A DNA stretch of 64,000 nucleotides, taken from positions 10,780 to 74,779 of the forward strand of contig JANNYF010000120.1 of NCBI GenBank assembly GCA_031409955.1, written 5' to 3'. Under the pieces are notes generated by a model. That model was not told where the DNA came from. It worked only from the letters and a program-made list of their open reading frames with translations, and did no database searches. Positions 5,465-54,567 of this stretch are shown one piece after another (position 1 is the first letter of the stretch; the number at the start of each line of letters is the position of its first letter). The stretch is from Blastocatellia bacterium (lineage in GTDB: Bacteria; Acidobacteriota; Blastocatellia; RBC074). The position numbers and the translations under genes were made by a program.

Positions 5465-5562
5465 AGTCTGGGGAAGTCTAGGAGAGTCCGGGGAAGTCTG
5501 GGGAAGTCAAAAGCCCAACTTTCCTAGACTTTCCTAGACTTTCCTAGACTTTCCTAGACTTT
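5465..5562. repeat. Intergenic 10-bp tandem repeats in inverted arrangement
   Basis: (agtctgggga)-like units followed by (ttcctagact)x4, which are approximate reverse complements. Confidence 0.85.
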
Positions 5563-5569
5563 TCCCCTC

Positions 5570-6697
5570 ATGCATATTGGCATTGACGCCCATGCCATCG
5601 GCGCACAACAGGGTGGGAATGAAACCTACATTCGCAACCTGATTACGGCGCTGGCCGAGTTAGATCACGAAAATCAATATACGCTGTATTTGTCCGCTGC
5701 GCAGGCGGCTGAAATTTGGCGCAATCGCTATGCGAATTTTGACGTTCGTCTGTTGCCGCCGCCCACACCGCTGGTGCGCGTTCCATTGGCATTAGCACTG
5801 GAGCTACGCCGTCGCCCGGTAGACGTATTACACGTGCAATATACTGCGCCGCCATTTTGTCCTGCACCCATTGTCACCACGATTCATGATTTGGCGTTTG
5901 AGCATTTGCCCGAAACCTTCACGCGGCGCGGCAAAGCGCAATTACGATTGACTGTGCGACGGACAGCGCGTCACGCCGCGCATATCCTGACCGTTTCAGA
6001 ATTTTCACGCCAGGACATCATCAACACATACCGCTTGCCCCCGGACAAAATCACCGTCACCCATAATGGTTGCGAAGCGCAATTCACGCCCCAGCCCGCT
6101 TCAGACCATGAAGCCGAAACGATCAAACAAAAGTTTGGTATCGCACGTGATTACCTGCTGGCCGTGGGCAGTTTGCAGCCACGCAAAAATCTGATTCGTT
6201 TGCTCAAAGCTTATGCGATGTTGCGCACACAACAATCGGGCTTTCAACTTCAACTGGTCATTGTGGGCAGGCAGCTTTGGCTGTACAAAGAAGTTCTTCG
6301 TGAAATCAAGCAACAGAATTTTGCGGCAGACGTGATCGTCACGGGCTATGCCAGTGATGAAGATTTGCCTGCGCTCTACCGTTCGGCGGTCGCCTTGGTT
6401 TATCCTTCGCTCTTTGAAGGCTTCGGGTTGCCGCCACTCGAAGCCATGGCTTGCGGCACACCAGTGATTACGAGTAACTCTTCCAGTTTGCCCGAAGTCG
6501 TGGGGAACGCGGCGTTGCTGGTGAATCCATACAAAGAGGCCGACCTCGCGCAGGCAATGTGGAAACTCACTAACGATGCGACGTTGCGCGTTCAACTACG
6601 TCAGGCCGGAATCCAGCAGGCCAAGCAATTCACGTGGCACGCTGCCGCCGAAAAAACATTGGCGATTTATCGAGCGATTGCTCACCGACATCAGTGA
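5570..6697 (+). CDS. Glycosyltransferase family 4
   Basis: PRKNL and [14 protein letters not shown] motifs. Confidence 0.93.
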
Positions 6698-40998: not shown

Positions 40999-41937
40999 TT
41001 ATTTAGCGCTGAAGCTTCCCGTGAACGAGCCTTCCGTCGTGTTGTATTCAATCGTATTGTTTCCTCTGGTGCGCAGCGTCCCGGTTGCCCCGCTCAAGGC
41101 CAGCGTGTTTCCGGTGACGAGGCAATTTGAAACGCGCGTCTTCGCGGTGCTGGTGCTTTGAATCCCCGTGCCATTATGACTGGCAACGCAATTCTCCAGC
41201 AGCATTTCGGTCTCTGCGCCGGAATTCCCATTGGACGTAAACCCGATGGACGCGCATTGCAAAACAACCGTATTGCGAATGACCGCCAGCGTTTTGTTGC
41301 CGCTGTTATTGGCTGAAATTGAAATGCCGGTCGTGGCCATTTTCTCGACGCGGCAATTATTGATGAGGGCGAACGCGGTGGTAAAACTTGCGGTCGTGAC
41401 CGCTGCCACAATGCCGTTATTGCAATTCTGCACGGTCGTGTTGCTGATCGAATGTTTGCCCGCGTTACCCGAAAGCGAGATACCTGTCCCCGCAAAATTA
41501 CGAACGACGCAATTCTCAATTTGCACGCCGCCTGCCGCTGTGGACTGAATTCCAAAGCTCGCGGTGCTTTGTCCCTCCAACGTCAAGCCGCGCAAGATCA
41601 CAAAATCAGTAGTGGCGGCGGCGACTGTCAGGGCATTGCCAGAGGCTGTATTGATGACGGCTTTGACGCCTGGCGCAGCTTGAATCGTGATGGCTTTCAA
41701 AATGGAAGCCGAGGCAAATTCCCCGGAATCAATGATGGTGATGACGCCGCCCGCCTGTGTTTGCGTAAGCGCATACGTCAGGTTCCGACAGGGTGACGCC
41801 GACGTACATAGCCCGGCATCACTACCTGTTCCGGCAGAAAGATAGGTGGTGGCGGATTGCGCAGAAACTGTGAGAGAAAACCCCACAACCAGCAAGGCGA
41901 TGAATAAAATCTGTGCGATGAATTTTGAATGCAACAT
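40999..41937 (-). CDS. Secreted right-handed parallel beta-helix protein
   Basis: Signal peptide; C..ASPCR, IIDSGEF, repeated I.NC....N..GI. Confidence 0.82.
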   Translation of the reverse strand: MLHSKFIAQILFIALLVVGFSLTVSAQSATTYLSAGTGSDAGLCTSASPCRNLTYALTQTQAGGVITIIDSGEFASASILKAITIQAAPGVKAVINTASGNALTVAAATTDFVILRGLTLEGQSTASFGIQSTAAGGVQIENCVVRNFAGTGISLSGNAGKHSISNTTVQNCNNGIVAAVTTASFTTAFALINNCRVEKMATTGISISANNSGNKTLAVIRNTVVLQCASIGFTSNGNSGAETEMLLENCVASHNGTGIQSTSTAKTRVSNCLVTGNTLALSGATGTLRTRGNNTIEYNTTEGSFTGSFSAK

Positions 41938-41968
41938 GATGATTTCCTTTTTGATAATGGCTCGCAGT

Positions 41969-42910
41969 TTATTTGGCGACGTAAACTTCTGAGAATGTAC
42001 CGTTGGTCGTATTGCCTTCCAGCGTATTGTTCAAGCGGGAAAATATCTGACCAAGATTAGATATTTGCAGCCCCTGAGCATTTCCGACAATGGTTGAATT
42101 TGAAACGCGAATCACCGTTCCATCTCGTTCCGCGATAAGGCCAACCCCGTTGTCAAAAGAAACAGAATTCTCGACCACGCATTCGACGGTGGAATTGGTG
42201 ACATTCGCAATGGCGCGTAAACCAGCCCCAACGTTATGCGCCAGATTCGTATCTCGGAGCGTAAGTCGTAGGGCCGCATTCGCTGCGCCGCTGGCATTGA
42301 TTCCATTGAAATTGCTTTTTTCGATGAGGCTGCTTTCAATCGTTGCTGTCAGTAGCCCACTGGACGCGGGGGTCAAGACTATTCCCTGCGAATTATGGCG
42401 AACGGTGGTCTGCGAAATGGTCAGGTGTCCGCTGGCCTGCGCTTTGATGCCCTCACCCGAAAACCCTTCGATGATGCAATTGCTCAAGGAAACAACGGCA
42501 GCAGATTGATAGCTGACACCTCTCAGGTTCGTGCTTGTACTGCCTTTGATATGTAACCCTTGCAGAAACACTTTGCCCACACTGCCAGCGTTTACTGTAA
42601 TTACATTGGAAATCGCCGGATTCTTGAGCACCGCAGCGACGCCCGGCGCAGCTTCAATCGAAACGGATTTCGTGATCGTGATTTCGGCATAATCGCCCGA
42701 ATCAACAATGAGAATGCGCCCGCCCGCAGCAACGAGGGAATGTGCCGAAGCCAGGCTGCGACACGGCAGGGCGAGAGTACAGGGATTGCCGTCTACGCCG
42801 TTCTGCGCGGAAACAAAAGTTTGCGATGGTTGCGCAAAGGCCGCGCACGTCGTCAGGATTACTGCGACAACGGAGAGAATGATCTGAGTTACAGAACGTG
42901 GATTGTCCAT
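41969..42910 (-). CDS. Secreted right-handed parallel beta-helix protein (paralog)
   Basis: Signal peptide; TFVS...NPCTLALPCRS, IVDSGDY, AAPGV shared with 40999-41937. Confidence 0.82.
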   Translation of the reverse strand: MDNPRSVTQIILSVVAVILTTCAAFAQPSQTFVSAQNGVDGNPCTLALPCRSLASAHSLVAAGGRILIVDSGDYAEITITKSVSIEAAPGVAAVLKNPAISNVITVNAGSVGKVFLQGLHIKGSTSTNLRGVSYQSAAVVSLSNCIIEGFSGEGIKAQASGHLTISQTTVRHNSQGIVLTPASSGLLTATIESSLIEKSNFNGINASGAANAALRLTLRDTNLAHNVGAGLRAIANVTNSTVECVVENSVSFDNGVGLIAERDGTVIRVSNSTIVGNAQGLQISNLGQIFSRLNNTLEGNTTNGTFSEVYVAK

Positions 42911-42934
42911 TGGGTTTTCTTTCTCCTACAAAAG

Positions 42935-43195
42935 TTAGTTGCGGTGACATAGCGAATTGAGACAAATAAGGAGCAGCCCGTCGCGCTCCTCAATCACGTG
43001 AAGCCGATGCAATTGAATGAGCTGGTGCAAAGCAGTCATTGAGAGTTGCAGCAACAATGCCGCCTGAGGTGGTGTGACCGTTGGGAGGTGCGCCTGACAA
43101 CGATCACACCACATAACAAACGGGGCATTGCGCCGGCTGACAAGCACGACGCGTTCGGTTTCGATAATAATTTCAGTGCGTGTTCTTCGGCCCAT
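42935..43195 (-). CDS. Small CxxC + HTH-like (excisionase/MerR-like) protein
   Basis: WCDRC, TPPQAALLL, LH.IEE.DG.LLICLNSL; paralog of 43322-43594. Confidence 0.7.
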   Translation of the reverse strand: MGRRTRTEIIIETERVVLVSRRNAPFVMWCDRCQAHLPTVTPPQAALLLQLSMTALHQLIQLHRLHVIEERDGLLLICLNSLCHRN

Positions 43196-43224
43196 AACTT
43201 CAACCTCTTTCAGCTTCGAGGTGA

Positions 43225-43302
43225 ATGATAGGCGGGCAGAGGAAAAGAATCTTGAAGTTCGGCTGAGGTTTTCTTGAGATTATTTTGAGGTCGTTTTGAG
43301 GT
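43225..43302 (-). promoter_or_regulatory. Promoter with five 11-bp-period direct repeats (box A)
   Basis: TGAAG/TGAGG/TGAGA/TGAGG/TGAGG at 43253, 43264, 43275, 43286 and 43297; minus strand AAGATT-17 bp-TATCAT. Confidence 0.75.
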
Positions 43303-43321
43303 AACGACAGTTTGCGCAACC

Positions 43322-43594
43322 TTATTGGCTCTCGCTGGCTTGCCCATAAAGCGAGTTGCGGCAAATCAAGACGCGGCCATCTGGTTCTTCGATAAAATGC
43401 AAAAGCTGGGCTTCCACCCAGCGATAAACCACACGCGGTGTCACCTGAATCAGCACCGCTGCCTGTTCCGGTATCAACATTTCCACGCGCGCAGAACAGT
43501 TCAGACACCACAAGTGAACGGGCATTGTTTGTTGAGGGACAACAATGATTCGTTCGGTTTCGACAATAATTTCTGTCCTTCTCTTCGTCGCCAT
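43322..43594 (-). CDS. Small CxxC + HTH-like (excisionase/MerR-like) protein
   Basis: WCLNC, PEQAAVLIQVTPRVVYRWVE, LHFIEEPDGRVLICRNSL. Confidence 0.75.
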   Translation of the reverse strand: MATKRRTEIIVETERIIVVPQQTMPVHLWCLNCSARVEMLIPEQAAVLIQVTPRVVYRWVEAQLLHFIEEPDGRVLICRNSLYGQASESQ

Positions 43595-43687
43595 AAAAAC
43601 TACTTTACGAAAGGGGGCAAAGTTAGGGAGCCGGGGGATTTGGCTACGATAAAACCTGCTTCACAAAGAACAAGGGCAACGGGTTTG

Positions 43688-44956
43688 CTATTTGGTTTTT
43701 AGCAGCCGCAAATTGCGAAATCCGCTTTCGCTCAGGGCCTTTCCGCTTTGATCTTTGGCAATCACGCGCCAGCGAATAGTTTCCGCCTTATCCTTCAACC
43801 ACGACGGAGCGCGATACGATTTGATCCCACTCCGAAACCACGCGAACAAAAGGTTCTTGCCATTCGCATCCTGAATTTCCAACTCATAAAATGAAGCTTG
43901 CGCGACATCAGACCACGTGAAGTCAATCGGTCGCCGCGCGTCGAGCTGCACATTGTCGCGTGGCAATAACAGTTGCAAGGCAGCCGCCGTTGGATTCACG
44001 CCTTGCCCAATGCCGCCGATCACATAGCGCAACACTGGCAACGGAAAGCCTGCGACCGCGCCGCTATGAACGGTATCAGGACCAGCATTCACAGCGGTCA
44101 AATTGGAATCGCCTTCGCGGTCATCACTGGCTTCAATCCGCAATAAAATCAGGTACGTTCCTTCGACTTTGCGCGGCAACCGCGCGACCTCCGGGCCGGG
44201 CAAAATAACTTTGCCGACCGGCGGCAAGAACACATTGAAGCGGCTAAGTTGCGTGTAGCGTTTTTGCAATCCGCGCTCTTCAAACGGCAACGTCGCTTCG
44301 GTCAGCAAGTCGCGCTCATCGGGCAATTCTTCGCCAGGCAACACAATTTCCCAACGTCCTTTCAATCGGCCTGTGCCGTTGTACGTGATGTTGGCTTTGA
44401 GCGGCGGCAGCGGCTTGTCAGTTTCGGCAAACAGGATTTGCGATTCTTCTTTGCCAAACAACAGCTTTACGTCCGTCAGGGAAAACGGTACGCGCGCGCC
44501 GCCGCCTGACAAACGACACGTGACATCCACATATTGATCGGGGCCGCCCGTCGTGCTGACGAAGCGACGCACGTAAAAGAACCGCGCCTCTTCGCCGCGC
44601 GCCGCCGCCTGATACGCACGCCGCGCGACCGAAGCCGGAATGGACATCACATCGGTGTAGGCATTGTTGCCGCTGCGCTTGCTGCGATCATAGCGCGATG
44701 GCAGCAAGCCGTAGGTTGCCGCCGGATTGCACTTCAGGCCTTGATCGGGCGCAGCCGAAATCAAATCGCCACACCACGTCGCTTCCGCCGGGCTGTAATC
44801 GCGTAAATTGCCAAACGTCAAAAACACCGTCGTGGCACCTTGACTGTTAACGTTGACGCCTTTCGGATTGACAGCAATCGTCTGTGCGAAGCATTCCAGC
44901 CTCACGCCCAGAAACAGATAAACCAAAAACAAAATGATGACCGAGGTTCGATTCAC
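43688..44956 (-). CDS. Exported multi-beta-sandwich hypothetical protein, partner of the outer-membrane barrel
   Basis: GTG at 44956 with GGAAAGG RBS; signal peptide ending CFA-Q; C-terminal FN3-like FTWS....FYELEI...WRVIA. Confidence 0.7.
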   Translation of the reverse strand: MNRTSVIILFLVYLFLGVRLECFAQTIAVNPKGVNVNSQGATTVFLTFGNLRDYSPAEATWCGDLISAAPDQGLKCNPAATYGLLPSRYDRSKRSGNNAYTDVMSIPASVARRAYQAAARGEEARFFYVRRFVSTTGGPDQYVDVTCRLSGGGARVPFSLTDVKLLFGKEESQILFAETDKPLPPLKANITYNGTGRLKGRWEIVLPGEELPDERDLLTEATLPFEERGLQKRYTQLSRFNVFLPPVGKVILPGPEVARLPRKVEGTYLILLRIEASDDREGDSNLTAVNAGPDTVHSGAVAGFPLPVLRYVIGGIGQGVNPTAAALQLLLPRDNVQLDARRPIDFTWSDVAQASFYELEIQDANGKNLLFAWFRSGIKSYRAPSWLKDKAETIRWRVIAKDQSGKALSESGFRNLRLLKTK

Positions 44957-44973
44957 AGTAGTTACCTTTCCAA

Positions 44974-45069
44974 TGGGGAGGGCAGCGGAAGCGCGTGCCT
45001 GCTCTGACAAACTAAATTGCAGTGAAGTCGGTGCAAAAGCCATAGCACGCGCTTCCGCTGCCCTCTCCA
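44974..45069. repeat. REP-like long inverted repeat
   Basis: tggggagggcagcggaagcgcgtgc ... gcacgcgcttccgctgccctctcca (about 25-bp stem). Confidence 0.8.
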
Positions 45070-45071
45070 AA

Positions 45072-47231
45072 CTAAAAGAACGTAAAATTGATGCCCGCAT
45101 TCAACGTGTTACTTTTCGTCAAATTATTCGTATCAAAACTCCGATCAATCGTGCGCACGAAGAAGTTGGCATAACGAACAAAGAACTGTCCGCTGAACTT
45201 CTTGAATTGCTTCTGCCCAGCCAAAAACTTCCACGTCCACTGCGCATTGAATTCGTTCGTGAAGTTGTCGCTGATCTGCCCTAAATCAAACGCATTCAGC
45301 GTCGAAAGCGTTGCGCTCAACGCGGTGTTTTTCGTCACCTGCAAATTCGCATTGAAGCCGAAACGCCACGTCTGATCGCTGCGTTTGTTTTCGACATTGC
45401 GGGCGCGTTCGGAGTTCACGTCAAAGCTCAAATCCACCTTTTGATTCGGCGTGTAGCCAAAGGTGACGCCGTTGATTGTGTTGTATAAATCCGCGCTTTC
45501 GCGCCCGGTTTGCCGATTGTCCTGTGACGAACGATTGAAGCGATAGCCGGTGCGAAACTTCGTAAATTGCCATTCCGCCGTGAACGCCTGATTGATGCTC
45601 AACTGATTCGGCACCGTGCTGAGATCAAGGTCAAACCCGCCGTTCACCGGAATGGCTGCGCCGAATTGATGCACGCGGTCGTAGGTGAATCCCACACGCG
45701 GCAGCCAGGGCGAAGGCTTGTCGGCATTGCCGATGAACGCCTGCAACGGCGCATTGATCGCGGCGGCGCTGCGTCGTGTCAGGCTTTTCAAAATCGAAGG
45801 AATGTCCGCCAGATTGTCATTGAACCGCTGATGCGTCAGCGTGATATTCAACTGATCCAGATTGCCTGTCACGTCCCATTGATTATTAAAGCGATCCGCT
45901 TGCGTCGTGGCGGCAACGCTGCGAAACAATGGGTCTACGCGCTCGTGATGATACGCGGCGGTCAGCGTTGCTTTCTTCGATTTCGTGACCGTGATGTCTT
46001 TCAGAATATCGAAGCTGGCATCAATGAATTCGGCGTTGCGCGTAGTTTCCTGCACCTGCACGATGGGCCGACCTTGATTCAGCAGCGGGTCGGGCGGATT
46101 CGTGAAGCGGTTGCGTGTGAAGCCGCCATCGAATTTCGCGCGCTGCGATTTGTCGCTCGCAATCAGGCGAAAGCCGTAGCCCTGACTCTTTTCGGCGTCT
46201 GTGATTGCACTCTGATTGACGCCAGTTTGTGGCAGCAACGAGCCATCCATAAAACTCACCTCGGTGCGCAATCCGCCGGGACGTTCTTTCAGAAATTCGT
46301 GCCCCCACGATGCGCTGAACACTTGGTGATTGCGGTTGTTGAGGCCGAAGAAATTGCCGAAGCCGACAATGCTTGAGCCGTTCAAGGCCGCGACGGAAAA
46401 CTCATCCTGCTTGCCGACGGGAACGGTCAACGTCAGTCCACGCGAAGCAAAGCTGTTGATGAGATGGCGATTGCTGCCGAATGATGTGTGACCAGAAATG
46501 AACTTGCTGCGCCCCAGATTGAATTGCATCAGGTAATTCGCCAAATCTGTTCTCGGTGCGTCATTGCCCAACGTACCAAAGCGCAACGCTTCTTTGCGAA
46601 AGCTTGATCCCGCGATGTCGAATTGCATTTCGGAACTAAACTTGTCGCGCTTCATTTCGCCTTTCAAACTGGCTTGCAACGTCGTGTCCAAAAACTTCGG
46701 GCGTTCGGGTTTATTCGTATCTGGGAAATGCGTTTCTGCCGCTTGCGATTTGAAGCCCAGCGTTATCGAAGGCGTGAACTTCATCTTGCGCGTGACCACT
46801 GCTTCGGGCTGCGCAGTCGGATCCGTCGTAGCCGCAGCAACTGTCTGATTTGCCGCCGCCGCCACGCGCAATGAGAAATGCGCCAATGCTTTCCATTCGT
46901 CATTATTGGTCACGAGGTAAATCGTCACCTCGTTTTCGCCGACGGGCAGGGCGAATGGCGTGGGCAAATAGCTTACGCTGTCGGCCTTGCTCGTCAGCAA
47001 ATTCGTCACGTCGGTTGTTCCGATGACCACCGCGATTTTTTCGTCTTTGAGCGCGCGACTGAGCTTGAATTCCAACAACTCAGTCGGCGCTACTGATTCC
47101 TTCCCAGCAAAGCTTGGCGTGACGGTCAATGCGTCTTGCGCCAATAATGACAGGCTCAGCAGAGCCAGCCACAAGATGAACCAGGCTGCGGGCAGCATCA
47201 GCTTTTGTTCTGATTTCAGCCTGAAAGACAT
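45072..47231 (-). CDS. Putative outer-membrane beta-barrel protein with an N-terminal Ig-like domain
   Basis: Signal peptide; long run of alternating hydrophobic strands; terminal NAGINFTFF (BAM-type aromatic end). Confidence 0.72.
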   Translation of the reverse strand: MSFRLKSEQKLMLPAAWFILWLALLSLSLLAQDALTVTPSFAGKESVAPTELLEFKLSRALKDEKIAVVIGTTDVTNLLTSKADSVSYLPTPFALPVGENEVTIYLVTNNDEWKALAHFSLRVAAAANQTVAAATTDPTAQPEAVVTRKMKFTPSITLGFKSQAAETHFPDTNKPERPKFLDTTLQASLKGEMKRDKFSSEMQFDIAGSSFRKEALRFGTLGNDAPRTDLANYLMQFNLGRSKFISGHTSFGSNRHLINSFASRGLTLTVPVGKQDEFSVAALNGSSIVGFGNFFGLNNRNHQVFSASWGHEFLKERPGGLRTEVSFMDGSLLPQTGVNQSAITDAEKSQGYGFRLIASDKSQRAKFDGGFTRNRFTNPPDPLLNQGRPIVQVQETTRNAEFIDASFDILKDITVTKSKKATLTAAYHHERVDPLFRSVAATTQADRFNNQWDVTGNLDQLNITLTHQRFNDNLADIPSILKSLTRRSAAAINAPLQAFIGNADKPSPWLPRVGFTYDRVHQFGAAIPVNGGFDLDLSTVPNQLSINQAFTAEWQFTKFRTGYRFNRSSQDNRQTGRESADLYNTINGVTFGYTPNQKVDLSFDVNSERARNVENKRSDQTWRFGFNANLQVTKNTALSATLSTLNAFDLGQISDNFTNEFNAQWTWKFLAGQKQFKKFSGQFFVRYANFFVRTIDRSFDTNNLTKSNTLNAGINFTFF

Positions 47232-47255
47232 GGGGGTTTCTCCTGCTTTGAATAA

Positions 47256-48062
47256 TTAGGGATTGCCGCTCAAGGTGGTGGTAATCCGTTGTATGACCGT
47301 GAAAAAGGTTTCGACTTTGATGACCGCTTCGATGCGGACATCTGACAAACTGGCAACAGGCGAAGAACTCACGGTCAAGCGCGCCTGCCGGGTGCCGGAG
47401 CCAACGGTCGTCGTCGCCGTGCGCGTCCCTAACACTTGGGCGCCACGTTTATAGGTAAACGTGCCACTGACCTTGGATTGCTTTTCACTGACACTTGGCG
47501 CCAAACGAGCGCGCCAAAACACATCGAAACTCTTGAACCCGGAGCCATCTACAATCGTCACGTTCGTAACGGCATCGTTGGCGTTAGGAGTACTGCTCGG
47601 TCCTCCTGACGAGCCTTCCTGTTTGCCCAACGAAAACGTGCCGTTCAATTCACGCTTTTGCGTGGCAAGCGTGGTGAAAGACGTGACAATAGTCGTTTGG
47701 GCTACGACAAACTTGAGTCCATTGAGTGGCACCTGAAGCACGAGTTCACGGACGGAACCTGCGGCGGTTTGATTCGTAGTGGTGATCTTCCCCTCGGAAT
47801 CCCTCGTATTAAGGGAAATATCAAACCTCTCAAGCTTGGTGAGGTTAGGAACTTGCGCTGTCCATTTCACCCGCACCTGGTTGCCTTTACCCGGAATGGT
47901 TTTGGCTTCGGTAATTTGCACCGTGGGCGGCCCGGCTAAGTTCGGAATATCAATCGGATTGAGCGTCTTATCCGGCAGTTGCACCGGTTGCGCGACGGCA
48001 ACCAAGATCAGTCCCAGCAAGATTGTGGTGGCTGCGAGCCAGCTTCGTAATTGGTTAAGCAT
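47256..48062 (-). CDS. Secreted Thr/Ser/Val-rich two-domain beta protein
   Basis: Signal peptide then QPVQ; two V-x-W motifs; ends LSGNP. Confidence 0.7.
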   Translation of the reverse strand: MLNQLRSWLAATTILLGLILVAVAQPVQLPDKTLNPIDIPNLAGPPTVQITEAKTIPGKGNQVRVKWTAQVPNLTKLERFDISLNTRDSEGKITTTNQTAAGSVRELVLQVPLNGLKFVVAQTTIVTSFTTLATQKRELNGTFSLGKQEGSSGGPSSTPNANDAVTNVTIVDGSGFKSFDVFWRARLAPSVSEKQSKVSGTFTYKRGAQVLGTRTATTTVGSGTRQARLTVSSSPVASLSDVRIEAVIKVETFFTVIQRITTTLSGNP

Positions 48063-48074
48063 ACGTTCTCCTCA

Positions 48075-48953
48075 TTAAAAATTGCCGCTGACCTGCGCTT
48101 CCGCTGGTTGTCGGTTTGTCTGATCGCGTCGGCCTTTGATCGTGACGCTCGCTTGCATTTGCGTGAGCTTGCGTGGATCGTTGCGGAAGCGGCTGTCATC
48201 AATGTCAATTTCCACTTCCCGCAAGGCAACATTGCTCACCTGTTTTCCGCCACCTGCGCTAAATGTTTTGGGCGGATTCCCACCTGTAAAATTGAACCCA
48301 CCGGAAACACTAACCTGGAAGGAAACAAACGGGATGACTGGCGGCTTAACAAACCAGGTGACTTTGAAGCGGTTGGGATGCGTGGCTTGTTGCCCGGTTT
48401 TGATGATACCCGTGATTAAGATTTCTTGCGTATTCGACGACGCAGCGATGCCGGGCGCAGAGAAGTTGTTTTCCGGCGTCAGAATAAACTGTCGCTCCGT
48501 CGTAAACTCTTCCGCGTTGGCGAACTTGGGGTTGTAAAAAGCTCTGGCATTGGCCGAAAAACTTTTGAGCGGCACGGCGGGCAAAAGCTTGGCTGGCACC
48601 ACAACTTTTCCCTCACACGGAATCAATCCGCCCGACGGATTACTGCAGGTCGCCACCAGCACCTTGCTCGTCTTCGTAGACCCGTCAGCATAAGTCACGG
48701 TGAGGAACAAATCAGAAGTTCGCAACACGAGGAATTGCGGCACAAATACTTTCCACGTAGTTTTGATCTCAAACGAGGGCGACGCCCCGGGCTTAAAAGC
48801 AGGTGTGCCAACCACGATGTTTTCGACTCTTCCTTTGGCCCCAATTTGATCGCTGACATTGGGTACTTGCTGGACGGGCTGGGCGCTGGCAGTGATCGCC
48901 CAAGCCATCAGGATCACTGTCAGTTTCCATCCGCTTCGTCGTTTGTTGTACAT
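48075..48953 (-). CDS. Secreted two-domain beta protein
   Basis: Signal peptide then QPVQ; KTTWKV and KVTWFV; ends VSGNF. Confidence 0.7.
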   Translation of the reverse strand: MYNKRRSGWKLTVILMAWAITASAQPVQQVPNVSDQIGAKGRVENIVVGTPAFKPGASPSFEIKTTWKVFVPQFLVLRTSDLFLTVTYADGSTKTSKVLVATCSNPSGGLIPCEGKVVVPAKLLPAVPLKSFSANARAFYNPKFANAEEFTTERQFILTPENNFSAPGIAASSNTQEILITGIIKTGQQATHPNRFKVTWFVKPPVIPFVSFQVSVSGGFNFTGGNPPKTFSAGGGKQVSNVALREVEIDIDDSRFRNDPRKLTQMQASVTIKGRRDQTNRQPAEAQVSGNF

Positions 48954-48983
48954 AGTTTCTCCCGTGCAATGAATCAGAAACGC

Positions 48984-49466
48984 CTACTGTTTTTTGGTCA
49001 CGCCCGTGATGGCGACGCCGTCATCGGTTCCCGTGAAAAATGTTTCCTTGCCCTCATTCACGATGACAAAGCTGCCGTTGGTCGAAATCCCCAGCACGGG
49101 CAATTGCAGCGTCACAGTGCCGGTGCAATCGTCGTCAACCGTATACGTGCCAATGAAGCGGCCTTTGAACGGAATCCCGCCGAGATTCACGTTGTATGTC
49201 GCAAACAAGCTGCCACGCCCATCGAACGTGATTGGCCCGGCGGCAGTGATGGCTTTGCCCATCACTGTGCCGTGATACGAATAGCCATGCGTACCTTTCA
49301 TCGTGCGTGGTGAGCAAGGTCGGGCGTGATCGCGCTCAGAGTTTTGAGCCAAGCTCGATTGTTGTGCGTGCACGCGCGGTGCCTTGCTGAACGCGGCAAT
49401 GAAGGTCAGCATCAACAGACTGATGGTAGTGAATCCGACCGTGAGGGTTGTTGTTGTAGGTTTCAT
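48984..49466 (-). CDS. Secreted small beta-rich hypothetical protein
   Basis: AAGGAG RBS; signal peptide; CS..TMKGTHGY...TFDGRG...GTYTVDDDCTGT. Confidence 0.72.
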   Translation of the reverse strand: MKPTTTTLTVGFTTISLLMLTFIAAFSKAPRVHAQQSSLAQNSERDHARPCSPRTMKGTHGYSYHGTVMGKAITAAGPITFDGRGSLFATYNVNLGGIPFKGRFIGTYTVDDDCTGTVTLQLPVLGISTNGSFVIVNEGKETFFTGTDDGVAITGVTKKQ

Positions 49467-49538
49467 AAAGACTCCTTGAGTAAGATTTTTGTAACGCTGA
49501 TCGCCCACCCGAAAGCAGGCGGTCAGCGATTCTGCGGA

Positions 49539-50573
49539 TCACTTTTTATTGAATCCCACTTCAATGAAGACAGTGCTTGAAAGGATGAAACTGCATTGGG
49601 CCTGTCCATTGCAGGCGCTGGCATTGGGGTCATTGCCCGTAATGATGACCGATCTGACTGTGCTGCCAGCAGCGGGGGTAACTTGCAAAAATAACTTGGT
49701 GTCTCGCTTGAAAGTTCCTTTGGCAAACTGGCCGTTTTGTATGCCATCGGTCGTGATGGCTGGCCCTCCTTTGGGAGCGATAACAACCTTTCCGCTTCCC
49801 GGTCCCAACTTCTTCAGAGAAACATTGAACTCTGTCAGAGGCGGTGTTGGCTTGGGTGCAGGCGGCTTTTTGAAGACCGCTGACACTTCGGAGTTTGCGT
49901 TCAGGGTAAAAGCGCACGGGGCAGTTCCACCGCAAATCGAAGCCGCGCCAGACCCGTTGGAAAAGCTCTGAAAATTTTGCGTGCTGGCTTGAATCCTGAT
50001 TTGCGCCCCTTTTCTGAGGCGAAAATCACAACCGGAAAATGGATCGCGGTCATTGGGAATCGCGCATTTCACCTGTGAGATAATCGGGTCACCCGTCACT
50101 TGCACGTCTACGAAATCGCTGAAAGTGGGCTGAAGCATCTTCAGGTTAAATCGGAAGAACGGGTCTACGCCGGTACATTTCACCGCGAAGTCTGTCACTC
50201 TTTTTAAGGTCTGATTAGCAAATCCAGCGGTGATAAAGGCGGTTGCACTTACGGTTGTTGCTGTCTTCGGATTACAAGCAACATTGACTGTTTTCTGTTC
50301 ACCGGGATTCAGCGTTTGGTTGCTGCCTGGAATTGAAACATTGAAAGTGCCGGCGGGATTATTGGCAATGTTACCCCCGATTCTGATCTGTTGCTGGCTG
50401 GTATTTTTGACCGTTACGGGTACGGTCTTTCCCGCCTCAAATTCAACCGAGCCGAAATCCAATGAGGTCGGATTCACCGAAACAGTGGGGCTGCCTTGCG
50501 CGAAGGCCGCAGCCGTCAGCAGCAATAACCAAGCGGCGCTCAGACCAGCGATTTTCTTCAGTGTAGTGTTCAT
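49539..50573 (-). CDS. Secreted protein with an ASH/choice-of-anchor-D-like Ig domain and InlB B-repeat-like modules
   Basis: VNPTSLDFGSV...VTVKNT...LNPGE; C.G...C.F.L modules; AAGGAG RBS. Confidence 0.72.
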   Translation of the reverse strand: MNTTLKKIAGLSAAWLLLLTAAAFAQGSPTVSVNPTSLDFGSVEFEAGKTVPVTVKNTSQQQIRIGGNIANNPAGTFNVSIPGSNQTLNPGEQKTVNVACNPKTATTVSATAFITAGFANQTLKRVTDFAVKCTGVDPFFRFNLKMLQPTFSDFVDVQVTGDPIISQVKCAIPNDRDPFSGCDFRLRKGAQIRIQASTQNFQSFSNGSGAASICGGTAPCAFTLNANSEVSAVFKKPPAPKPTPPLTEFNVSLKKLGPGSGKVVIAPKGGPAITTDGIQNGQFAKGTFKRDTKLFLQVTPAAGSTVRSVIITGNDPNASACNGQAQCSFILSSTVFIEVGFNKK

Positions 50574-50604
50574 AGTGTTCTCCTTCTCTGTGGTTATATT
50601 CGGT

Positions 50605-50994
50605 TTAGAACGCATCCATCGTACAAAAATCATTGGGACTCTGACCGCAACCCCGGCAATCGCCGCGATTAGGCCCCAAGATGATGCCGCGACAATTGCC
50701 GCCAGAGCTGGAGCTATTGCCAGGACAGACGCCGCAGCCTAACCGCCCGACGAAGCGGCGCGTAGATTTCTCGCGCACCGCGAGCTTGCCGTCGGATTCT
50801 ACGATCAGTTCAAACTTGCCCGTGTCTTTCAGGCGAACACTGTTTTTCGCTGTTTTTTCCAGCACATCCCGGAGCTTCACGCTGGGAGGGCTATCTTTTT
50901 TGCTGGTCTTTTGTGTGAACGCGCCGACGAACGCGACCATCAGTACGGTGGTCAGAATGGAGAGCGCGAGTTTTTTCCAAGCTTGGTTCGACAT
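50605..50994 (-). CDS. Small secreted protein with a six-Cys C-terminal domain
   Basis: Signal peptide; CGVCPG...C...C..C...CTMDAF; AAGGAGG RBS. Confidence 0.72.
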   Translation of the reverse strand: MSNQAWKKLALSILTTVLMVAFVGAFTQKTSKKDSPPSVKLRDVLEKTAKNSVRLKDTGKFELIVESDGKLAVREKSTRRFVGRLGCGVCPGNSSSSGGNCRGIILGPNRGDCRGCGQSPNDFCTMDAF

Positions 50995-51024
50995 AAATGT
51001 TTCCTCCTTATTTGTGAGCAGTTC

Positions 51025-51396
51025 CTAAAATGGATCAATCAGACAGCCCGAACTGGTACAACTGTTACGTGGCACACAGGAGCCGCTGAGACGTGACCGA
51101 CAGGTTCCACCAGGGCAGGAACCGCATTTGACGCGGGCTTCCAACCGCCGTGTTTCTTTGCCTACGATCTGATCCACGACCCAACCTTCGTCAATCAACA
51201 CCAGTTTGAAGCCAGGTTTGGCGCGAATCTGGTTCGGGCCGACACGTTCGACTGCCTCTTTCAAGGTCACTTTCTTTTCGCTTTTTTTGCCCTGTGCCTG
51301 CGTGAAACTGCTGAGCGATAAGGCCACCATCAGTACGCCTGCAACACAAAGCAGCGAGGTTAACAATAGGTTCTTTTTCAGAGTTGTTCGTAACAT
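51025..51396 (-). CDS. Small secreted protein with a six-Cys C-terminal domain (paralog)
   Basis: Signal peptide; CGSCPG..C...C...C...CLIDPF. Confidence 0.72.
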   Translation of the reverse strand: MLRTTLKKNLLLTSLLCVAGVLMVALSLSSFTQAQGKKSEKKVTLKEAVERVGPNQIRAKPGFKLVLIDEGWVVDQIVGKETRRLEARVKCGSCPGGTCRSRLSGSCVPRNSCTSSGCLIDPF

Positions 51397-51439
51397 AACG
51401 TGACTTCCTTTCTAGCTTGAGGCCGGCTTGCGAAGAGGA

Positions 51440-52081
51440 TTACTTGGCGGCGATTTTGCCTTCAGCGCGGACGATGAAGATCAGTTCTTCGACGACTTTC
51501 TTTTTGTCCACGACCCGCTTATTGCCGGCGAATTGTTCTTCGTGATTGATGACGACAGGCTTGGAAAAGCCCACGACGGCGATGTCGCCTTGCTTATTCA
51601 CGATGCGGACGCGCTTGCCGCTGAGTGATTCGCCGTTCGGGACACTCACGGTTTCGGTCGTGAGCGAAAAATCCGCGATGACCGTTTTTCCGCCCACTGA
51701 GAGCTTGATCGGAACGGAGCTGAAGTCGAATTTCCCTGACGTCAAATCCGCCGTCAGCTTGCCTGCGCCTTGCAGCGCGGCGTTGAAGTTTTTGCCTTTC
51801 GCAGAAGTGCTGCTCCAAACGCGATTCGTCGTGAATTCCTTGCCACTGGCGGCGTCAATTAAGTTGCTTTCAAAACTCAACGGGCCTTCGGCTTTGTCAA
51901 TTTCCTGCCATTGTCCGTTGGGTAATTTCTTGCAGACTTTGATAGCGATCTTGCCGCTGAATTCGCGCTTCTTTGAGGCCGCGTGCAGCAGGAAGCCGCC
52001 CACGGCAATGAAAGCCGCGAGGGTTGTTATCACAGTGATACCGAGAATGCGAGATAGCTTGTTTTTTAGTTGCGGTTTCAT
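51440..52081 (-). CDS. Exported Lys-rich beta protein, first gene of the operon
   Basis: AAAAGGAGG RBS; hydrophobic N-terminal helix. Confidence 0.72.
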   Translation of the reverse strand: MKPQLKNKLSRILGITVITTLAAFIAVGGFLLHAASKKREFSGKIAIKVCKKLPNGQWQEIDKAEGPLSFESNLIDAASGKEFTTNRVWSSTSAKGKNFNAALQGAGKLTADLTSGKFDFSSVPIKLSVGGKTVIADFSLTTETVSVPNGESLSGKRVRIVNKQGDIAVVGFSKPVVINHEEQFAGNKRVVDKKKVVEELIFIVRAEGKIAAK

Positions 52082-52118
52082 GGTTGTTCCTCCTTTTGTT
52101 AACTAACTCATTTGGGTG

Positions 52119-52406
52119 GCATCCAGCTTCTTCAACTCACCACAGTGTTCTGCCCGAAGACTGCGTGTGACTGAAGAAGCTGGTGTCAGTCGCAGTCATC
52201 TTCATCGGCAGTGCTTGCTGATAGCTGCGACTTTTAGTAACGAGAGTCATTCGGGATAGGAGAGAGCGTCCCCGACGCCACAGACTCCCCCGAACCGGTG
52301 GCGTGTCGGACTCCCAACCATCCCGAATGATTCATCGCCCCATCCACTATCGAGCTGTTGGCAGCGGATGGTTACGCTCCTCCTGTCAAAGTACCTGTTC
52401 GGTACG
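52119..52406 (-). ncRNA. Candidate structured 5' leader (four or more consecutive hairpins)
   Basis: Stems 52123-52134/52172-52183, 52188-52195/52225-52232, 52244-52257/52320-52333 and 52340-52345/52366-52371. Confidence 0.5.
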
Positions 52407-52412
52407 CGCCAA

Positions 52413-52490
52413 ACATTACGTGGGTCAGGAACCAAAATCTTTAGGTTGGTTTGAGGTTTTCTTGAGATTTTTCTCTGCTCGTTTTGAAGC
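52413..52490 (-). promoter_or_regulatory. Promoter with 11-bp-period direct repeats (box B, homologous to box A)
   Basis: TTAGG/TGAGG/TGAGA/(mismatch)/TGAAG at 52441, 52452, 52463, 52474 and 52485; minus strand AAGATT-17 bp-TAATGT; 18 bp identical to box A. Confidence 0.75.
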
Positions 52491-52728
52491 CTGGAATATC
52501 GTTCAGTCCATTGGGCCTGTCGAATCTGCCAAGCCTGCCGAGTCTTTGAAATCTTTGGCTCTCCAAATTCGATGGATTTTAAAGATTCGATACGCTTTAT
52601 TTTTTAGATACTTGCCCCTCTTTCATAAAAAATTTAGAGGTCTTTTATGAATTCCATTCCCCAATCCGGTTATCATCCGATACGGACACCGCATCCCGAA
52701 ACTTGCAACGATTACACCCGGAGAAGTT

Positions 52729-54567
52729 ATGAATCATCATTCCCTTCCACTTTACGAATTTGGGACGTTTCGACTCAACCCGCTGGAACGAATGCTGACG
52801 CGCAACGGTCAGCCCATTCCGCTGGCGCATAAAGTTTTCGATACGCTGATTCTGCTGGTGCAAAACAGCGGTCATGTGATGGGCAAGGACAAGTTAATGG
52901 AGCTGATCTGGCCGGACAGCTTTGTCGAAGAAACCAACCTCGCGCAAAACATTTCGATTTTGCGCAAAGCGTTGAGCGAAGGAGTGGAAGGAACAAAATA
53001 TATCGAGACGGTTCCGAAGCTTGGCTATCGCTTCATCGTCCCGGTCAAGGAAGTTACCAATGAACCCGCCAGTCTCATCATCCGCGAACGGACGCGCGCC
53101 CGCATCATTGTCGAAGAAACCGACGACGAATTGGACGAGCCGCGTTTGGTGAATCCGCGCCACCCCATCATCGAATTGCCGCCGCACGCCGTGCAGGTTC
53201 TCGCGCCCGCGCCCACGCCGAGGCAATTGCCACCGATGCGGCGAATGTTGGAAACCCATTACGTGCAGAGCGGCGATGCCAACATCGCGTATCAAGTCGT
53301 CGGCAACGGCCCGATTGATCTGGTGTTTGTGATGGGCTGGGTTTCGCATTTGGATTATTTTTGGGAAGAGCCGTCGTTTGCCTACTTCCTGGATCGGCTG
53401 GCGTCATTCTCACGGCTGATCCTGTTCGACAAACGGGGGACGGGGCTATCGGATCGCGTGCCGCTCAATCAATTGCCGACGCTCGAACAACGGATGGAAG
53501 ACGTTCACGCGGTGCTGGACGCGGTTGGATCAGAACGTGCTGTGTTGTGCGGCGTTTCGGAAGGCGGGCCGATGTGCAGCTTGTTTGCCGCCACGTATCC
53601 CGAACGAACGTCGGCGCTGGTAATGATTGGGAGTTACGCGCGTCGCCTACGAGATGAAGATTATCCCTGGGGGCCGACCGTCGAACAGCGCGAGCATTTC
53701 TTCAAGGAAATCATCGAACATTGGGGCGGCCCGGTTGGCATCGAAGACCGCGCGCCAAGCCGGATGCACGACGAACGTTTCCGGCAATGGTGGTCCACGT
53801 ATTTGCGAATGGGGGCCAGCCCCGGCGCTGCGTTGGCGTTGACCAAGATGAATGCCGAAATTGATATTCGCCCGGTTTTGCCGAGCATCCGCGTCCCCAC
53901 GCTCGTGCTGCATCGCAAGGACGATATGTGCTTGCGCGTCGAAGAAGGGCGTTATGTTGCCAATGCTATTCCCGGCGCGAAATTCATCGAATTGCCCGGC
54001 ATAGACCATCTGCCGTTCGTCGGCGATCAGGATGCAATTCTGGATGAAATCGAAGAGTTCCTCACGGGCATGCGCCACGCCCCCGAACACGACCGCGTAC
54101 TGGCCACCGTATTATGCACGCGCCTAGTGAGCTGCCCCGAAGCCAACGAACGAGACGTGCGGTGGCAAGAGATGTTTGACCGCCATTACGCCTACGTGCG
54201 CAAAGAAGTTGAATTGTTTCGAGGCCGTGAAAGCGATCTGAATCAATGCGGCTTGATCGCCACCTTCGACGGCCCCGCGCGCGCAATTCGCTGTGCCGCA
54301 GCAATCAATAACTCCGCACGGCGGATGGGCATTCCGATTCAAACCGGCGTGCATACGGGCGAATGCGATTTGATCGGAGATGACAAAGTTAGCGGCATCG
54401 CCGTGGACATCAGTTCGCAAATTGCGCAACTGGCAGCGACGAACCAAGTGTTGATTTCTGGTACCGTGAAAGACTTAGTCGCCGGTTCGGGACTTCGGTT
54501 TTCCGATTACGGATTGCATCAGTTGGAAGGCGCAGAGCAAAACTGGCGACTGTACGCCGTAGATTGA
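52729..54567 (+). CDS. Transcriptional regulator: OmpR/CadC-type winged helix + alpha/beta hydrolase + class III cyclase-like domain
   Basis: YEFGTFRL...IWPDSFVEETNLAQNISILRKAL...IETVPKLGYRF; GVSEGG nucleophile elbow; ATFDGPARAIRCA...GVHTGEC (LipJ-like). Confidence 0.88.
   Translation: MNHHSLPLYEFGTFRLNPLERMLTRNGQPIPLAHKVFDTLILLVQNSGHVMGKDKLMELIWPDSFVEETNLAQNISILRKALSEGVEGTKYIETVPKLGYRFIVPVKEVTNEPASLIIRERTRARIIVEETDDELDEPRLVNPRHPIIELPPHAVQVLAPAPTPRQLPPMRRMLETHYVQSGDANIAYQVVGNGPIDLVFVMGWVSHLDYFWEEPSFAYFLDRLASFSRLILFDKRGTGLSDRVPLNQLPTLEQRMEDVHAVLDAVGSERAVLCGVSEGGPMCSLFAATYPERTSALVMIGSYARRLRDEDYPWGPTVEQREHFFKEIIEHWGGPVGIEDRAPSRMHDERFRQWWSTYLRMGASPGAALALTKMNAEIDIRPVLPSIRVPTLVLHRKDDMCLRVEEGRYVANAIPGAKFIELPGIDHLPFVGDQDAILDEIEEFLTGMRHAPEHDRVLATVLCTRLVSCPEANERDVRWQEMFDRHYAYVRKEVELFRGRESDLNQCGLIATFDGPARAIRCAAAINNSARRMGIPIQTGVHTGECDLIGDDKVSGIAVDISSQIAQLAATNQVLISGTVKDLVAGSGLRFSDYGLHQLEGAEQNWRLYAVD

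Follow-up and report, generated by a model that had tools for sequence, protein, structure and literature searches.

Phased 11-bp repeat arrays as candidate operators of a CadC-like one-component regulator in a Blastocatellia bacterium

We analysed 64,000 nucleotides of contig JANNYF010000120.1 (assembly GCA_031409955.1, positions 10,780 to 74,779 of the forward strand; hereafter the window) of a Blastocatellia bacterium of the phylum Acidobacteriota. Two arrays of short direct repeats, named box A and box B, precede two groups of genes read from the minus strand, and a gene for a 612-amino acid (aa) protein with a winged helix-turn-helix (wHTH) domain starts divergently from box B. We favour the reading that both boxes are activator-type promoters bound by this protein, acting as a one-component regulator. 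The sequence of the boxes, its conservation, the spacing to a putative -10 element, the linkage to the regulator gene and the co-occurrence of the two across genomes carry this reading, which we regard as probable rather than proven. Transcription control in uncultured Acidobacteriota has, to our knowledge, hardly been studied.

Sequence, geometry and conservation of the boxes

On the plus strand, box A comprises TGAAG (43253), TGAGG (43264), TGAGA (43275), TGAGG (43286) and TGAGG (43297), spaced exactly 11 bp apart, and box B, in the same phase, TTAGG (52441), TGAGG (52452), TGAGA (52463), CTCTG (52474) and TGAAG (52485). Read from the minus strand, taken here as the coding strand, each unit consists of about seven conserved bases, YCTCAAR, and about four A-rich ones, and both boxes are thus head-to-tail direct repeats with the 10-11 bp period typical of pho box-like elements. 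In a repeat search of the window, 43248-43299 matched 52436-52487 over 52 nt as a direct repeat, with 81% identity and an offset of 9188 bp. It includes an exact 18-mer common to 43264-43281 and 52452-52469, and the stretch TCGTTTTGA common to 43291-43299 and 52479-52487. The 18-mer has two exact copies in the whole genome (7.68 Mb); with up to three mismatches it was matched twice in the window against 0.05 matches expected, and none of 100 shuffles gave two matches. When both strands of the genome were searched for TGARR units at periods of 8 to 14 bp, five units of five were found once, at period 11 (box A itself), and four of four three times, again only at period 11.

The two boxes share their promoter geometry. 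The minus strand reads AAGATT (43253-43248), 17 bp and TATCAT at box A, and AAGATT (52441-52436, within the proximal unit), 17 bp and TAATGT at box B. The proximal unit, CYTNAAGAYTT, lies over a putative weak -35 element, AAGAYT agreeing with TTGACA at two to three of six positions, its end is separated by 16-17 bp from the putative -10 element (TAnnnT), and the arrays span about -83 to -29 relative to the predicted start. In 18 of 19 boxes, TAnnnT was found 17-18 bp past the proximal AAGAYT (16 by script and two by eye, the script having caught a distal AAGATT in the latter), the box on contig C309 being the exception; at such a distance, TAnnnT follows 105 of 7219 genomic AAGAYT sites (1.45%). 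An earlier note on this DNA had reported the five units of box A and their spacing, the 18-mer and second stretch shared over 9188 bp, and the AAGATT-17 bp-TAnnnT arrangement of both minus strands, and all of these were recovered at the expected positions; the geometry also yields the starts near 43218 and 52406 that the note expected. Its proposal that the last repeat overlaps a non-consensus -35 element agrees with the sequence, in which the array covers a putative weak -35 followed by a putative -10 at constant distance. A separate sigma-70-like site at 52523-52495 (TCGACA, 17 bp, GATATT) was rejected as being at chance level (0.6 expected) and not conserved in sequence among the relatives compared.

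We found the box to be widespread in the genus. A degenerate pattern of the box core gave 19 matches in 14 genus genomes against three for the reversed control, and B-type boxes occur in 13 of these genomes, the only one without, G013, being 67% complete and also lacking the regulator. When 17 boxes were aligned without gaps, invariant columns fell on the CTCA cores of both central units, on the A-tracts of these units and on the proximal AAGA-T, but nowhere in the spacer before the -10 element; judged from these alignments, the array is under selection as a cis-element. The unit of box B that the earlier note had called degenerate keeps the common phase but is no product of decay, as 13 of 13 B-type boxes have an invariant CAGAGAAAAA there. 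This second unit (52474-52483 in the window) is replaced in the same way in every B-type box (loci L033-L045 and L058), whereas the boxes of the A, C191 and C19 type have a normal CTCAA unit at this place, and it may be the site of a second factor.

A profile built from the 17 boxes and searched against the 7.68-Mb genome detected five sites at E <= 1.4e-4, the next match having E = 0.7 (Table 1). The two-transcript regulon suggested previously is therefore too small: the scan yields four putative CTCAA-type promoters and a fifth site, on C309, which begins at the ATG of a different wHTH paralogue.

Table 1. Positions of the arrays, predicted promoter elements, transcription units and RNA elements (window coordinates unless a contig is named; C-numbers are contigs of the same genome, G000)
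Feature	Position	Strand	Details
Box B	52436..52489	-	Coding strand, distal to proximal: CTTCAAAACGA, GCAGAGAAAAA, TCTCAAGAAAA, CCTCAAACCAA, CCTAAAGATTT; nhmmer E = 3.6e-18; downstream, operon 52081-43322; orthologous box in 12 other genus genomes
Box A	43248..43301	-	Coding strand: CCTCAAAACGA, CCTCAAAATAA, TCTCAAGAAAA, CCTCAGCCGAA, CTTCAAGATTC; nhmmer E = 2.7e-14; downstream, 86-aa gene and two beta-helix proteins; orthologous box in G006
Site C191	C191:6268-6338		Downstream, DUF2306 membrane protein; orthologous box in G004
Site C19	C19:24928-25012		Downstream, five genes, two of them for small Cys-rich secreted proteins and three for larger ones; orthologous box in G010
Site C309	C309:16276-16341		Downstream, 812-aa beta-propeller/cytochrome c protein; profile E = 1.4e-4
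Predicted -10, promoter A	43225..43230	-	TATCAT; predicted start ~43218, then AAGAGG and ATG at 43195
Predicted -10, promoter B	52413..52418	-	TAATGT, 17 bp past AAGATT; predicted start ~52406
Candidate regulator	52729..54567	+	612 aa; CadC-like wHTH, alpha/beta-hydrolase and LipJ/Rv1900c-like cyclase-homology domain
Paralogue arrays	C99, C81, C317, C9, C246, C249, C358, C322, C309		Upstream of wHTH genes
Transcription unit B	43322..52081	-	Genes 51440-52081, 51025-51396, 50605-50994, 49539-50633, 48984-49508, 48075-48953, 47256-48062, 45072-47231, 43688-45100, 43322-43594
Transcription unit A	40999..43195	-	Genes 42935-43195 (86-aa BldC/Xis-like), 41969-42910 and 40999-41937 (secreted right-handed beta-helix)
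Structured 5' leader	52082..52406	-	~325 nt, from the predicted start of promoter B to the first ATG
Long hairpin	44970..45073	-	Near-perfect; separates the 719-aa gene from the probable true start of the gene that follows

The divergent wHTH protein as candidate binder

The wHTH domain of the 612-aa protein is N-terminal (residues 27-102), matches Trans_reg_C (PF00486, E = 1.1e-15) above the cut-off of the model, and has the DNA-binding domain of CadC (5ju7, E = 1.2e-15) as its best solved match. Residues 172-611 match the LipJ model with E = 7e-116, although below its cut-off. This part includes an alpha/beta-hydrolase, with KAI2, D14 and RsbQ among its solved relatives and with GVSEG, as read in the translation, taken to be the conserved elbow, and a cyclase-homology domain similar to the cyclase domain of Rv1900c (1ybt, E = 3e-29). 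Two Asp residues are catalytic in class III cyclases. Since the 612-aa protein has Arg and Cys in line with the Asp of FTDIV and the Asp of GDG of 1ybt, its C-terminal domain is probably no cyclase. Pfam and NCBIfam scans showed no receiver domain, no BTAD domain was matched at E <= 0.01, and no membrane segment was detected, the maximum 19-residue Kyte-Doolittle mean being 1.22, as compared with 2.35 and 2.66 in the paralogues encoded on C309. Orthologues with 74-94% identity are present in 11 genomes of the same genus.

Box B lies 240-290 bp upstream of this gene, in divergent orientation, and a box is located 203-507 nt upstream of the regulator start in seven of the 14 genus genomes (G000, G004, G006, G007, G009, G010 and G011). 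In G001 and G005, the distance is 2-3 kb, two inserted genes lying in the interval, and in G003 and G012 the relation is cut by contig ends. Beyond the genus, arrays of TGARA-type units at 11-bp spacing could be recognised by eye upstream of the regulator orthologue in seven of nine regions of a first set (G026, G030, G038, G034, G014, G021 and G023; none was evident in G024 and G017) and in four of five further regions (G048, G045, G042 and G047; weaker in G058). Most of them abut the start codon, those of G014, G038 and G048 being 60-250 nt away. Among 40 genomes of the family, 20 had both box and regulator, two the box alone, six the regulator alone and 12 neither (odds ratio 20, p = 2e-4), while for the box and the small BldC-like helix-turn-helix (HTH) protein discussed below the respective numbers were 16, 6, 7 and 11 (odds ratio 4.2, p = 0.053); both p-values overstate the association because related genomes are not independent. 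Without the unpublished genome G015, on which nothing else rests, the odds ratios are 19 and 3.9.

The paralogues of the regulator provide another line of evidence. A tblastn search with residues 1-115 returned 19 wHTH matches in this genome, 18 of them CadC-like. With respect to self-similarity at lag 11, six of the 19 upstream regions reached the top 1% of 3376 controls of the same kind and eight the top 5%; the best lag was 11 in seven of 19 (228 of 3376 controls), and an exact 4-mer recurred three times at period 11 in six of 19 (44 of 3346 controls). The repeated units differ from one paralogue to another (TTCTTGG, TTCCTGG, TGTGGGA, CTGAAA, TCAGGG), and the arrays mostly end 5-60 nt before the ATG of the regulator's own gene. 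On the opposite strand, 10 of 19 show ARGAYN, 16-19 bp and TAnnnT, with a divergent open reading frame usually starting within 100-350 nt. In the paralogue arrays, a distal AGTCYT faces the divergent gene. The other CTCAA-like box found next to a wHTH gene, that of C309, goes with a paralogue whose recognition stretch is almost identical to that of the 612-aa protein. Because of the conserved divergent linkage, the co-occurrence and the enrichment of 11-bp arrays upstream of paralogues, the adjacent CadC-like wHTH protein is the probable, and best, candidate for the binder of the boxes.

Several observations, in addition to the non-independence of the genomes, weigh against this assignment. 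The 16-17 bp between proximal unit and -10 element agree neither with the spacing rule of SARP promoters (see below) nor with the layout of the pho box. A consensus sigma-70 scan detected no site at either predicted promoter, which is expected with a weak -35 and gives no support. No RNA run is listed among the sequencing runs containing 43000-52800, as opposed to eight DNA runs from two sediment studies. The B-type boxes of G002 and G008 are situated mid-contig and unlinked to the regulator, and the 420 nt before the regulator gene of G008 showed no array. In the family, the regulator is without a box match in six of 26 genomes and the box occurs in two of the 14 that lack the regulator. As for the paralogues, 11 of 19 upstream regions fail the top-5% test and only six to eight pass the various periodicity tests, those failing being judged by eye or blank. 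Finally, the recognition stretch LAQN(I/V)S is present in three wHTH proteins of this genome, so that boxes A, C191 and C19 could belong to a paralogue.

This last point leads to an alternative in which wHTH proteins do use the arrays as operators, but the paralogues of C309, which are membrane-anchored and of TPR type, share boxes A, C191 and C19 with the 612-aa protein or take its place there. These paralogues carry the LAQN(I/V)S recognition stretch, nearly identical to that of the 612-aa protein (LAQNVS vs LAQNIS), and one of them abuts the CTCAA/TTCAA box of C309, which the profile finds at its weakest accepted E-value. Moreover, boxes A, C191 and C19 have the normal unit where all B-type boxes have CAGAG, which makes the box beside the 612-aa regulator the odd one out. 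Such cross-talk nevertheless appears unlikely to us, as box A has the exact 18-mer in common with box B and is identical to it at 81% of 52 nt, scores far above the C309 box with the profile, and belongs in G000 and G006 to a conserved cluster beside the 612-aa regulator. An explanation without any dedicated protein, in which the phased A-rich units provide intrinsic curvature or a UP-like element, or survive as a neutral remnant of promoter duplication, seems very improbable. A-tracts do recur in helical phase within the units, and boxes A and B could derive from one duplicated promoter, the small HTH genes next to them being paralogues. However, the invariant columns comprise the CTCA cores and AAGA-T and thus go beyond A-tracts, the paralogue arrays keep the 11-bp phase with units that are not A-rich (TGTGGGA, TCAGGG), and the motif is confined to five sites in the genome and co-occurs with the regulator across genomes.

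The other DNA-binding candidates of the locus are two small BldC/Xis-like proteins (43322-43594 and 42935-43195), which might bind the arrays as head-to-tail filaments, each on its own unit, with the wHTH protein being a mere neighbour or an upstream input. One such protein is encoded in each of the two transcription units; in G000 its gene closes the B-type operon, as it does in 10 of 12 relatives (for the remaining two, the contig or the locus ends first), and all five small-HTH paralogues of the genome are placed within wHTH loci or diverge from them. A structural model of the protein (pLDDT 81) was closest to the BldC-DNA complexes 6ama and 6amk, the top seven Foldseek matches being BldC chains (target TM-score 0.74-0.80, E = 3e-3 to 1.5e-2) followed by RacA and Xis proteins, and as modelled, the 86- and 90-aa proteins share with BldC a small monomeric MerR/Xis-like wHTH fold without dimerisation coil. 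BldC of Streptomyces is described as occupying rows of direct repeats, in variable numbers, head to tail (PMC5859096). Yet the BldC protomer covers 9 bp of AT-rich direct repeats (site AATTxxxxC; PMC5859096), whereas the arrays have an 11-bp period, and the small proteins possess about 35 additional N-terminal residues that include an invariant CxxC. In addition, the Foldseek E-values are weak (3e-3 and above), the NCBIfam BldC match is faint (E = 0.0068) and Pfam HTH_17 stays below threshold. Arrays of 11-bp period are also found at wHTH loci without a small HTH gene nearby (two loci on C99, and C81, C317, C9 and C309), the five such genes of the genome being located at four of 18 loci, and the box goes together less closely with the small proteins than with the wHTH regulator. 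The small proteins are serious rivals, but it seems unlikely that they are the binders; since arrays stand at wHTH loci devoid of them and the BldC site measures 9 bp, we read them as conserved targets or partners.

Binding of both boxes by the 612-aa protein thus remains our preferred reading. The earlier note had taken them for operators of the adjacent wHTH protein, after the model of OmpR/PhoB-type winged helices; the analysis supports in silico a selected cis-element over a weak -35, with the adjacent protein and its Trans_reg_C winged helix as best candidate. It does not support the two-transcript regulon or an OmpR/PhoB-type response regulator, the wHTH being N-terminal and fused to a hydrolase and a cyclase-homology domain in a protein with no receiver, and the orphan boxes, A included, could serve a C309 paralogue.

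Relation to known systems and proposed mechanism

Phased direct repeats over a weak -35 element represent a textbook mechanism, and the value of the present case therefore lies in a new family and its series of paralogues and not in a new principle. In the pho box, units of about seven specific and four A/T-rich bases on the coding strand replace the -35, and PhoP promoters of Bacillus carry four or more repeats. Our system resembles PhoB and PhoP in its OmpR/PhoB-type winged helix (Trans_reg_C) and in its 11-bp direct repeats, of which two or more are described for PhoB (PMC3978041). It differs in that the 612-aa protein is a one-component protein with the wHTH at its N-terminus, possessing neither the receiver nor the C-terminal wHTH of a two-component response regulator, and in arrays of up to five YCTCAAR units of which the proximal one ends 16-17 bp from the -10.

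SARP proteins of Streptomyces such as AfsR and PimR, which are reported to activate promoters with a weak -35 from direct repeats 11 or 22 bp apart over that element (PMC10936776, PMC5930380), are similar in having large sensor domains behind an N-terminal OmpR-type wHTH and 11-bp repeats over a poor -35, which is a putative one in our case. The 11-bp spacing is found here as well, but the BTAD domain is absent at the threshold given above, the sensor module and the phylum are different, and the distance of 8 bp between the 3' repeat and the -10 that is the rule in SARP promoters (PMC10936776) is not observed. To CadC and ToxR, the 612-aa protein is linked by its N-terminal wHTH and its best solved match, but it carries a LipJ-like hydrolase-cyclase module in place of the membrane segment. 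The C309 paralogues, with one membrane segment and an outside TPR part, are the CadC/ToxR-like ones, and Acidobacteriae are described as rich in membrane-bound regulators of this type (PMC10269533). LipJ (Rv1900c) of Mycobacterium tuberculosis corresponds to residues 172-611 of the 612-aa protein, which differs by the wHTH fused in front and by the Arg and Cys at the two Asp positions. The protein thus belongs to none of the named families, there being no receiver, no BTAD, no 8-bp spacing and no membrane anchor. By analogy, the operators are of the PhoB/SARP-like mechanistic class, and the whole is best filed as a mechanism of known kind in a new family, that of cytoplasmic one-component regulators with N-terminal wHTH, LipJ-like module and operators that comprise as many as five units. 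The listings of full-text searches contained no literature on wHTH operators in Acidobacteriota or on this domain fusion.

In the mechanism that we propose, four to five head-to-tail units per box, one helical turn (11 bp) apart, would be recognised by the wHTH domain, so that CadC-like winged helices are aligned along one face of the DNA. The regulator aligned in this way would recruit RNA polymerase in the manner of PhoB, PhoP and SARP proteins, i.e., we infer activation and not repression, and the alpha/beta-hydrolase together with the degenerate cyclase-homology module may serve as sensor and dimeriser. The predicted targets are an operon of nine to ten genes for secreted or envelope proteins behind a structured leader (box B), a small BldC-like protein with two beta-helix proteins (box A), a DUF2306 membrane protein (C191) and a five-gene cluster of secreted proteins (C19). 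If so, the boxes offer a concrete candidate operator for one regulator, with its sequence, phase and distance to the -10, and a predicted regulon of four promoters that mostly serve secreted proteins of unknown function.

A broader and more speculative scheme, which we put forward as a rather doubtful possibility, regards the box as one case of a duplicating cassette of regulator, operator and core promoter. About 18 CadC-like regulators would have private 11-bp arrays beside their own genes, often directly at the start codon, and share a divergent core promoter (ARGAYT, 16-19 bp, TAnnnT), and the pairs of recognition helix and repeat unit would form a natural specificity code. In this scheme, the 612-aa protein would act in the cytoplasm as receptor of a small hydrolysable signal, with a KAI2/D14/RsbQ-like hydrolase and a dead cyclase, and would switch on a cluster of secreted and outer-membrane proteins through a two-tier circuit including the BldC-like proteins and the leader RNA. 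The paralogous regulator-array pairs could be used to read how OmpR-type recognition helices select their repeats.

Transcription units, leader RNA and further elements

Unit B begins about 360 bp downstream of box B and contains nine to ten genes, whose products carry signal peptides and have no family assignment. An Ig-like protein is encoded by 49539-50633 and a 719-aa protein ending in Phe by 45072-47231; an Atlas search with the latter returned unnamed clusters only, and for most operon proteins Pfam and NCBIfam gave no match. The syntenic order downstream of box B consists of a variable cassette of genes for small secreted proteins, followed in most genomes by those of the 719-aa and a 470-aa protein. 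Box A is placed in the 126-bp gap between the paralogous genes of the 90-aa (43322-43594) and 86-aa BldC/Xis-like proteins, the latter having a predicted leader of 23 nt with AAGAGG after promoter A. No terminator-like site was found between unit B and box A, so that read-through from unit B is possible. In G006, an A-type box directly precedes two beta-helix genes. Besides the two window copies, the five-member family of these proteins of about 90 aa includes C246:2828-3064, C246:5938-6192 and C358:38424-38687, and all members share an invariant TEI-ETER motif in an N-terminal strand in addition to the CxxC.

The leader of unit B is a candidate for a new cis-regulatory RNA. In seven genus genomes it has a conserved multi-helix fold of 71 pairs, 36 of them with compensatory change, and none of 500 shuffles was as good; paired cells amount to 90.7%, in comparison with 78.3 +/- 1.1% in shuffles and 36-52% with partners slid. 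The leader has no Rfam match at E <= 1, and a covariance model of its 3' domain found the window copy only among 41 family genomes, the genus members there having short leaders. Its interpretation as a small open reading frame or an intrinsic terminator was dropped, there being no U-run past the last helix in the sequences compared. The long hairpin inside unit B has a folding energy of -68.1 kcal/mol (z = -8.4); the Rfam matches at E <= 1 between 42000 and 53000 are sub-threshold ones of hairpin or miRNA-precursor type at this place, on both strands, and two stray ones.

Both box B (50605-50994 and 51025-51396 of the window) and the C19 box (locus L059, 4969-5391 and 5480-5935) are followed by genes for small secreted proteins that have a signal peptide and are Cys-rich towards the C-terminus. 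These proteins have no family matches and no BLAST-level similarity between the clusters. Kinship of the C19-cluster proteins with window proteins was rejected after BLAST gave one weak match (30%, 85 aa, E = 2e-4), so that the small Cys-rich proteins resemble each other in layout alone. The leader of the 812-aa gene on C309 (locus L060, ~5480-5570) forms a hairpin with a stem of about 40 bp from 10-nt GAAGTCTGGA-like repeats, and it contains a CATTCGGGGGAGT stretch similar to one in the box B leader.

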